Positions 30,397 through 31,353 of a stretch of 64,000 bases of DNA are shown piece by piece (position 1 is the first letter of the stretch; each line of letters starts with the position of its first letter). The DNA lies in the NCBI GenBank assembly GCA_964016885.1, contig OZ024766.1, positions 19,220,001 through 19,284,000 on the forward strand, read 5' to 3'. The position numbers were made by a program, and so were the translations under genes. The notes under the pieces were generated by a model. It had not been told where the DNA came from and did not search any database. It saw only the letters and a list, made by a program, of their open reading frames with translations. The stretch comes from Eledone cirrhosa. Its lineage: Eukaryota.

Positions 30397-30701
30397 CAGT
30401 CTGTGTGAGGGTCATCAATGATGAGCAAGATCTTACAACGGTCCTTGTTTACGTTGGATCTCTGCCCTGAGAAGATGCCCTTTGCAATTCCAACTGCGCT
30501 GGTCTTTGATGGGGAGCTGGGCGCACTTGGGGATGGCCCCTTCCGAATCGGAAGTACAGGGACCTGGCCTTGTTCTTGAGCATCTCTAAGCTCTCCCTGT
30601 AGATCACCAGAGCTGAATCTTCTTCGAAGGAAGCTGACTCCCGTCGAAAAATTGTCCTTGAACGTTGAGAACGAAATTTTGACGGGTTTTGTTGAAACTA
30701 T
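30397..30701 (-). CDS. Syn: Synapsin first coding exon (domains A, B, start of C): IVSTKPVKISFSTFKDNFSTGVSFLRRRFSSGDLQGELRDAQEQGQVPVLPIRKGPSPSAPSSPSKTSAVGIAKGIFSGQRSNVNKDRCKILLIIDDPHTD+TG
   Basis: Open frame with the domain A PKA site LRRRFSSGDL, Ser-Pro MAPK-type sites and LLIIDDPHTDW; donor TG|gtgagt. The 5' boundary and start codon are uncertain because there is no in-frame ATG. Confidence 0.92.
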
Positions 30702-31199
30702 CTAAGGGTAGAATTCGATAAGACCCTTGGAAATAAAGGGAGGAAGCGGTTAAAATTAAGGGATATTTTGTTTTGTGTTTTGTAAAGGGTTTCTTTCTCC
30801 TTTATGGGAAATACAAAGAAGTTAGATGGAGGAAGGAATTTTAAGGGATTTCTTTGTAAAAAAAAAAAAATATGAAAGAATTTTGAAGGGAAAGATTTTC
30901 TTTTTTCAAAATATATGTTTTAAGGGGTTTGAAGGAGTTTTTAAAGGGAAAAAAAATTGTAGGAATTTTGAAGAGGGAGTCTAAAGAAAAAGGAATGCCT
31001 TCTTTTTCTTACATAAATTTAGTGGGGGAAGGAGAAAAATAGGGGACAGTAGGTAGCAAGATGTTGATTAATATAAAGAAGAAAGAAGGGTTGTTATTTT
31101 AAAGGAACAAGGAGTTATATGTCTATAAATCTCTGTAGCTTACACCCCCTTTTCTTACAACATCTCTTGCTTTTTGGACCCCTTTACCGTCTCCCTCAC

Positions 31200-31353
31200 C
31201 TATATGTGTGTGAGTATGGTGACAGACTGTGTGTGGAGTATACGAGCTCTCCTTTGTAATCCTCTCTAGATTTATCTCCCTTTGCTGTAATCACAGTAGC
31301 TGAATCACATGTAAATCCAGTTTTTGTTTCCGGCTTTTTGCCTGCAGCGCCAC
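31200..31353 (-). other. Syn: Probable non-coding 5'UTR exon of synapsin (154 nt)
   Basis: Strong acceptor ttctttttcttctttttcgtttcatag|G and donor TAG|gtgagg in non-repetitive sequence 500 bp upstream of the domain A exon. Its only ATG is immediately followed by TGA. Confidence 0.6.

Follow-up and report, generated by a model that had tools for sequence, protein, structure and literature searches.

A conserved AUU codon as the probable translation start of octopod synapsin

We suggest that the translation of octopod synapsin starts at the AUU codon 30677-30675, a reading that we hold at a probability of roughly 88% from sequence comparison. The analyzed DNA, referred to here as the window, is a 64,000-nucleotide stretch of the Eledone cirrhosa genome, and all the positions refer to it. 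The predicted N-terminus is likely M-SFSTFKDNFSTG-VSFLRRRFSS, which puts a 13-residue extension before domain A. The same AUU had been proposed as a start in the initial annotation, and the homologous proteins, the DNA of relatives and the column of the Drosophila CTG start support it. For octopus and fly, a non-AUG start has already been published, whereas the corrected codon and its conservation across phyla appear not to have been. We found no published statement of an ATT start, or of its sharing between molluscs and arthropods, in the accessible parts of the papers searched, a set that took in a minority of the subscription papers.

The reading of the sequence and tblastn place the 5' part of the synapsin gene on the minus strand of the window (Table 1). 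Seven window exons match the O. bimaculoides synapsin P0044, which carries PF02078 and PF02750 (domain C), and the six beyond exon 1 reach down to position 203. The translation of 30698-30396 is identical to P0044 in 98 of 101 residues. LRRRFSSGDL at 30629-30600 is domain A with the RRxS site-1 motif and aligns with the homologues; a Pfam scan of the 93-aa exon 1 product alone gave no domain match. Exon 1 has one match in its own genome, by DNA as well as by protein search (three candidates scored). Checked per codon, the minus strand runs from TAG 30704-30702 and ATA 30701 to the ATT in GTCAAA-ATT-TCG, and then to ISFSTFKDNFSTGVSFLRRRFSSGDL. This agrees with the initial annotation, which had described the ATT in that context and no ATG back to the in-frame TAG; read after this stop, exons 1 and 2 contain no in-frame ATG. 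The first one, at 25580 in exon 3, is codon 130 from the ATT (Met130); a start there would cut off domains A and B, also as claimed.

Table 1. Coordinates of the synapsin features discussed, in window positions
Feature	Positions	Strand	Basis or remark
Inferred AUU initiation codon (ATT) of synapsin	30675..30677	-	column -18 relative to RRFS
Conserved initiation context, about -11 to +9	30669..30688	-	relatives' DNA and Octopus
In-frame TAG, nine codons above the ATT	30702..30704	-	TAA in Octopus
ATA, rival start	30699..30701	-	column of the Maiole 2019 ATC; T at -3
Exon 1 coding part: 13-residue extension, domains A and B, start of domain C	30397..30677	-	
GTC (Val), column of the vertebrate-type start Met (MNYLRRR)	30636..30638	-	alignment
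RRFS, PKA/CaMKI site-1 motif, domain A	30612..30623	-	sequence; PMC1660579 (available part)
Unspliced 5' leader, at least 657 nt	30678..31334	-	contigs of the RNA-like run X2
uORF 1, ATG-TGA start-stop	31305..31310	-	
uORF 2, ATG-TTG-TAA	31155..31163	-	
uORF 3, ATG-TAA start-stop	31009..31014	-	
Predicted hairpin, about +27 from the ATT	30620..30651	-	folding
Exon 2, 58 nt	27546..27603	-	X2 contig joins exon 1 to it
Exon 3, first in-frame ATG 25580 (Met130)	25537..25628	-	

An assembly error, with an ATG misread as ATT, was looked for in public sequencing runs. The contigs of all three runs examined, which represent two samples of one study and include X1, perhaps the assembly's own source, read ATT with no alternative letter. 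The ATT at 30677 is genuine genomic sequence and an assembly error is excluded. Compared by eye with Octopus, the window DNA has many third-position differences, and the 93 codons of exon 1 differ by about 39 synonymous versus 2 non-synonymous changes. On this pattern, the exon 1 sequence upstream of Met130 is under protein-level selection.

It is highly improbable that only a truncated protein is made from Met130 and that the ATT is conserved for another reason, for example as an RNA element. The conservation around the ATT is seen at the nucleotide level, and the 384-aa O. bimaculoides UniRef model P0045 begins at Met130. However, this form would lose domains A and B together with PF02078 profile positions 1-53 of 103, about half of that domain, and the protein-level selection on exon 1 is strong. 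The fly protein is also reported to begin at the ATT column (available part of PMC1660579).

The octopus sequences in supplement 1 of PMC6817820 (O. vulgaris cDNA, O. bimaculoides genome) have the same ATT and context, and positions -11 to +9 around it are identical to the window by eye. At the place of the window's TAG-ATA, the sequences in this supplement have the stop TAA and the first Ile codon ATC, so the ATA is not conserved and gives no shared editing target, and the AG of the window's stop is no shared acceptor. The seven codons above the ATT are conserved in 20 of 21 nucleotides (by eye), which fits a context element and also coding from ATA/ATC. Five in-frame near-cognate codons lie between the stop and domain A, and a purine at -3 is found in just one of them, ATT 30677; its +4 is T in the window and never G among the 19 DNA sequences described below.

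Maiole 2019 (PMC6817820, in its available part) proposed a non-AUG Ile start for this orthologue in O. vulgaris and O. bimaculoides, with an in-frame stop just upstream, and claimed the unusual start for molluscan synapsins only. The predicted codon is ATC, the first after the stop and eight codons upstream of the ATT favored here. A start at this first Ile (ATA 30701 in the window), giving an N-terminus eight residues longer, is unlikely in our view. It has the support of publication, ATA and ATC are both near-cognate with G at +4, and six of the seven residues in the ATA-to-ATT interval are conserved with O. bimaculoides; against it, position -3 in both genera is the T that opens the stop, and the two differ in the codon itself. 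No relative outside the octopods has conservation starting at the ATA column, and several loci have a stop just 3-6 codons above the ATT. The choice of ATC is that of the first codon after a stop, as in the Loligo 'Phe start' entry, which begins 11 residues above the conserved Ile. Comparison of the sequences suggests that the published octopus start and many database synapsin starts are probably misplaced.

The least probable alternative of all is the ADAR-made start offered in the initial annotation, by which ATA 30701-30699 would be edited to AUI and read as AUG. Editing of domain A is described for Drosophila synapsin (PMC1660579, available part), and nearby Ser/Gly differences in cephalopod cDNAs resemble A-to-I recoding. 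The contig of the RNA-like run X2, however, has no other letter at 30699 at the majority level, at which minority editing is invisible, and its sole difference in 30395-30847 is 30741, shared with the DNA-like run X3. The Octopus ATC cannot be edited to AUG, and the T at -3 speaks against this start as well.

The DNA of relatives carries much of the argument for the AUU. Metagenome contigs were scanned with patterns omitting the start codon, and 49 synapsin loci were detected: 22 with the extension, 13 rotifer-like with ATG at +13 and without the extension, and 14 without a visible N-terminal exon. An HMM of the extension found no additional match in the 27 loci lacking it. The rotifer-like synapsins (L016, L024, L025, L028, L030, L032, L034-L039, L041) have a tandem ATG-ATG at the downstream column, and their stops lie 10-21 codons ahead of the RRFS motif. 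By the nearest named protein, the 22 loci with the extension are water-flea-, copepod-/decapod-, insect-, mite/tick-, bivalve- and gastropod-/annelid-like, the last assignment being weak.

ATT stands at the extension start in 22 of 22 loci, with one extra residue after it in L018, L026 and L050. Of these, 20 extend upstream, and each reaches an in-frame stop after 3-74 codons without passing a Met. The other two, L046 and L047, have a single base ahead of the ATT. Removal of the near-duplicates (L004, L007, L046, L047) left 18 loci, which together with the window make 19 distinct DNA sequences. All 19 have ATT and all have A at -3, against a background of 24% A. The context further includes C at -4 (17/19), A at -2 (17/19), A at -10 (15/19), C at +5 (17/19) and T at +7 (19/19), and the bivalve-like L033 agrees with the octopod letter for letter in GTCAAA-ATT-TCGTTC. 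As a control, ATT makes up 64 of 183 downstream Ile codons; in 32 of the 49 loci, eight conserved internal Ile columns gave 79 codons, of which 32 are ATT, 32 ATC and 15 ATA. Third positions are clearly saturated across the loci groups. These data support a nucleotide-level conservation of the ATT that goes beyond what the amino acid would require. Kinship among the 19 sequences makes the naive odds (2e-9, 2e-12) too favorable.

The proteins were collected by three protein searches, one of them giving the best 120 of 599, and a cluster look-up, 202 in total. At least 94 of the 202 have the 13-residue extension (51 distinct among the matches listed). At least 63 others are annotated from the downstream Met at +13, which hides their upstream codons. 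Column 0 of the 51 distinct N-termini among the matches listed is Ile in 32, Leu in 11 and Met in 6, and two are off-register by one residue. Leu was found in Diptera, Lepidoptera, a caddisfly, a flea and a ground beetle, and Ile elsewhere. Among the same matches, the residue before column 0 requires an A-starting codon in 43 of 44 (in register 41 of 42: Thr 19, Lys 16, Asn 6, Ala 1), versus 2-20 of 38-43 at columns -12 to -2. Entropy, again among the matches listed, is 2.3-3.2 bits at -12 to -2 versus 0.9-2.3 at the unconstrained columns after the start; the columns +1, +2, +5, +6 and +9 are fixed by the search pattern and were not counted. The alignment thus points to coding conservation that begins at column 0, with the holometabolous insects as a partial exception. 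Column +13, that of the vertebrate start Met, is Val in 37, Met in 10 and Thr in 4 among the matches listed; it is Val in the octopod, so AUU would be the sole start.

In the holometabolous insects (P0077, P0082, P0092, P0156 and relatives) we detected a second conserved in-frame stretch, Cys-containing and opening with Lys-Ile 17-21 residues above column 0, possibly a second near-cognate start for a longer isoform. Two crustacean models (P0151, P0178) have Cys-x-Cys at a similar place. An amphipathic (ALPS-like) helix in the extension was considered and rejected: its hydrophobic moment of 0.35 was reached by 13% of shuffles, and none of 36 distinct homologous peptides reached p<0.05.

An AUU start would explain the conflicting N-termini in the databases. 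The Drosophila entry begins MNFSSFK at column 0, 18 residues before RRFS. The entries with Met at column 0, as annotated at the protein level, include some snails, and the Aplysia Met entry may itself be an annotated non-AUG start. Four squid-like Logan proteins have a Met start seven codons above the conserved Ile; Loligo has Leu at this Met column, so the Met may be the gene caller's alternative start. An in-frame Met lies further up from column 0 in many insect models, and the upstream Mets used in the arthropod models are unrelated. One myriapod and one sea spider entry begin at the downstream Met of column +13, the RefSeq synapsin entries of O. bimaculoides and Patella are 'partial', and the Met130 model was described above.

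Run X2 was treated as RNA on the basis of the exon 1-exon 2 joint (into 27603) and of introns without cover; the run records list no RNA. Its contigs are unbroken over 31334-30859 and 30847-30397, with the poly-T between spanned by short pieces, and have no splice joint at 31200, 31188, 30980, 30701 or 30656, although contigs drop rare forms. Since this cover crosses 31200 and 30701 without a joint, the 'upstream exon' 31200-31353 of the initial annotation is the far end of a long first exon. The in-frame TAG described for it stands with either donor (31200 or 31188 to 30701), but the splice to 30701 does not, X2 being continuous over 31334-30397. The cover ends at 31334 and the true 5' end may lie further up, so the leader length is a lower bound. 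An A/G difference in the leader at 30741 is seen in X2 and X3 but not in X1, and is probably an allele.

A strong polypyrimidine tract and an AG acceptor were detected on the minus strand at 31354-31400, 19 nt past the end of the RNA cover. This strong-looking acceptor means that a further, non-coding upstream exon may exist; any exon joined at 31353 runs into in-frame stops. The acceptor also lends something to the reading in which an unseen upstream exon, spliced in frame into AG 30702 (or 30656), brings an ordinary ATG. TAG 30704-30702 is in phase 0 with a pyrimidine-rich stretch before it, and rare splice forms are lost from contigs. We regard this reading as very unlikely, below the ATA/ATC start and above the Met130 form. 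The X2 contigs pass 30701 and 30656 unbroken, the Octopus TAA leaves no AG at that site in cDNA and genome (PMC6817820, available part), and the stops met by an exon joined at 31353 argue against it as well. Seven transcript-like loci (among L002-L007, L009, L012; long ORFs of 544-657 codons included) are also without an upstream in-frame Met.

The leader has three upstream ATGs (31310, 31163, 31014), each opening a tiny uORF, instead of the single start-stop ATG noted initially. Three is an ordinary number (mean 3.6 in 5000 shuffles); that all are of two codons or fewer has p about 8e-4 in the shuffles (post hoc), and two of the three have T at -3. Start-stop uORFs were rejected as a general feature, being absent as a type from the seven other leaders checked, of which four are without ATG and two have uORFs of 5-53 codons. 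The leader of L026, possibly genomic, has uORFs of 8, 1 and 2 codons. The hairpin predicted from about +27 gives -13.7 kcal/mol (z -2.3) over its 50-nt segment, with a mean z of -1.1 over the 19 sequences and 8 of 19 below -1, a weak trend; by this folding it is a possible helper of AUU recognition.

In the proposed mechanism, 40S subunits would scan past the three uORFs or re-initiate after them, and Met-tRNAi would pair with the AUU, aided by the strong CAAA context. Ribosomes leaking past the AUU would for the most part start at the out-of-frame AUG 30583 (G at -3, 44 codons) and not make the Met130 form.

The Drosophila start has protein evidence. According to the available part of PMC1660579, the first fly ATG lies downstream of domain A and a CTG-encoded Leu is the first residue by Edman sequencing (second-hand, its ref. 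27). The available part of the FlyBase paper lists Syn with CUG (citing Klagges 1996) and NAT1 with AUU (Table S3, PMC4528330), and PMC2825198 (available part) puts the beginning of domain A in the fly 13 residues from the N-terminus. We infer from the FlyBase convention and from the mosquito Leu at column 0 that the fly CTG is the Met of the Drosophila entry. Drosophila and octopod synapsins share the column, the 13-residue extension, Val at the vertebrate Met column and the absence of AUG before domain A; they differ in the codon, CUG in the fly and, known here from sequence, AUU in the octopod.

Vertebrate synapsins are homologous to the octopod protein in domain A, the site-1 motif and domain C, but their domain A begins at Met1 (MNYLRRRLSD), where the octopod has Val (GTC) with 13 residues in front. 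The start of eIF4G2/NAT1/DAP5 is, like the one proposed for synapsin, a sole, deeply conserved near-cognate codon with conserved context, and in vertebrates it is GUG. NAT1 differs in being a translation factor whose start is non-AUG in vertebrates as well; the fish synapsin entries collected begin at the downstream Met without the extension. Few sole non-AUG starts are known to be conserved across phyla, with eIF4G2 as the usual example; the one suggested here would be in a core synaptic vesicle protein.

The AUU site and the Drosophila CUG start are likely homologous and would derive from the mollusc-arthropod ancestor, which lived over 540 million years ago. This ancestor probably had a weak AUU together with an AUG 13 codons downstream, a pair still present in bivalve-like loci. 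ATG at +13 is kept alongside the ATT in L033, L040, L044, L045 and L050; the downstream AUG is absent in cephalopods, limpets and most arthropods sampled. Its loss would make the non-AUG codon the sole start and synapsin output dependent on start-codon stringency. We somewhat favor, at little better than even chances for the reading as a whole, one homologous non-AUG synapsin start since that ancestor: an AUU+AUG pair with leaky scanning giving long and short N-termini, with independent losses of the AUG in cephalopods, limpets, arachnids and pancrustaceans and a change of the AUU to a CUG-like codon in some insects and to AUG in some snails. These putative gains and losses were ordered by taxonomy.

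If this is true, start-codon stringency (eIF1, eIF5, 5MP) would determine how much synapsin, or which ratio of its isoforms, protostome neurons make, and the molluscan synapsins that were cloned from the downstream Met would represent the short form only. The published octopus start would shift by eight codons and be tied to the fly CUG as one site, a link missed in the 2019 paper. The AUU start predicts a conserved 13-residue extension beside the PKA site, and the AUU-AUG pair predicts that bivalves and heterobranch snails make two isoforms that differ at the N-terminus.

Several other observations were made in the window. At 30635 (minus, AGC of GVSFL), the genomes have Ser, and the O. vulgaris cDNA, the Loligo entry and two of the four squid-like Logan proteins have Gly; this difference, three residues before the PKA motif, looks like A-to-I recoding, and the X2 contig is unedited there at the majority level. 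Loligo has a Ser-to-Gly difference inside the extension as well. At 21476 (minus), the exon ending HKEM continues as Val in the tblastn match, and this read-through resembles the GTGAGT alternative donor of the VSNLW insert in Syn8.2 (PMC6817820, available part). A 749-codon open frame similar to LINE reverse transcriptase (YADD-like motif) lies within a synapsin intron at 14481-16727 (minus), with related fragments at 33145-33629. A 72-bp tandem repeat occurs in opposite orientations at 399-2177 (minus, intron) and at 31672-32688 (plus), just upstream of the first exon.
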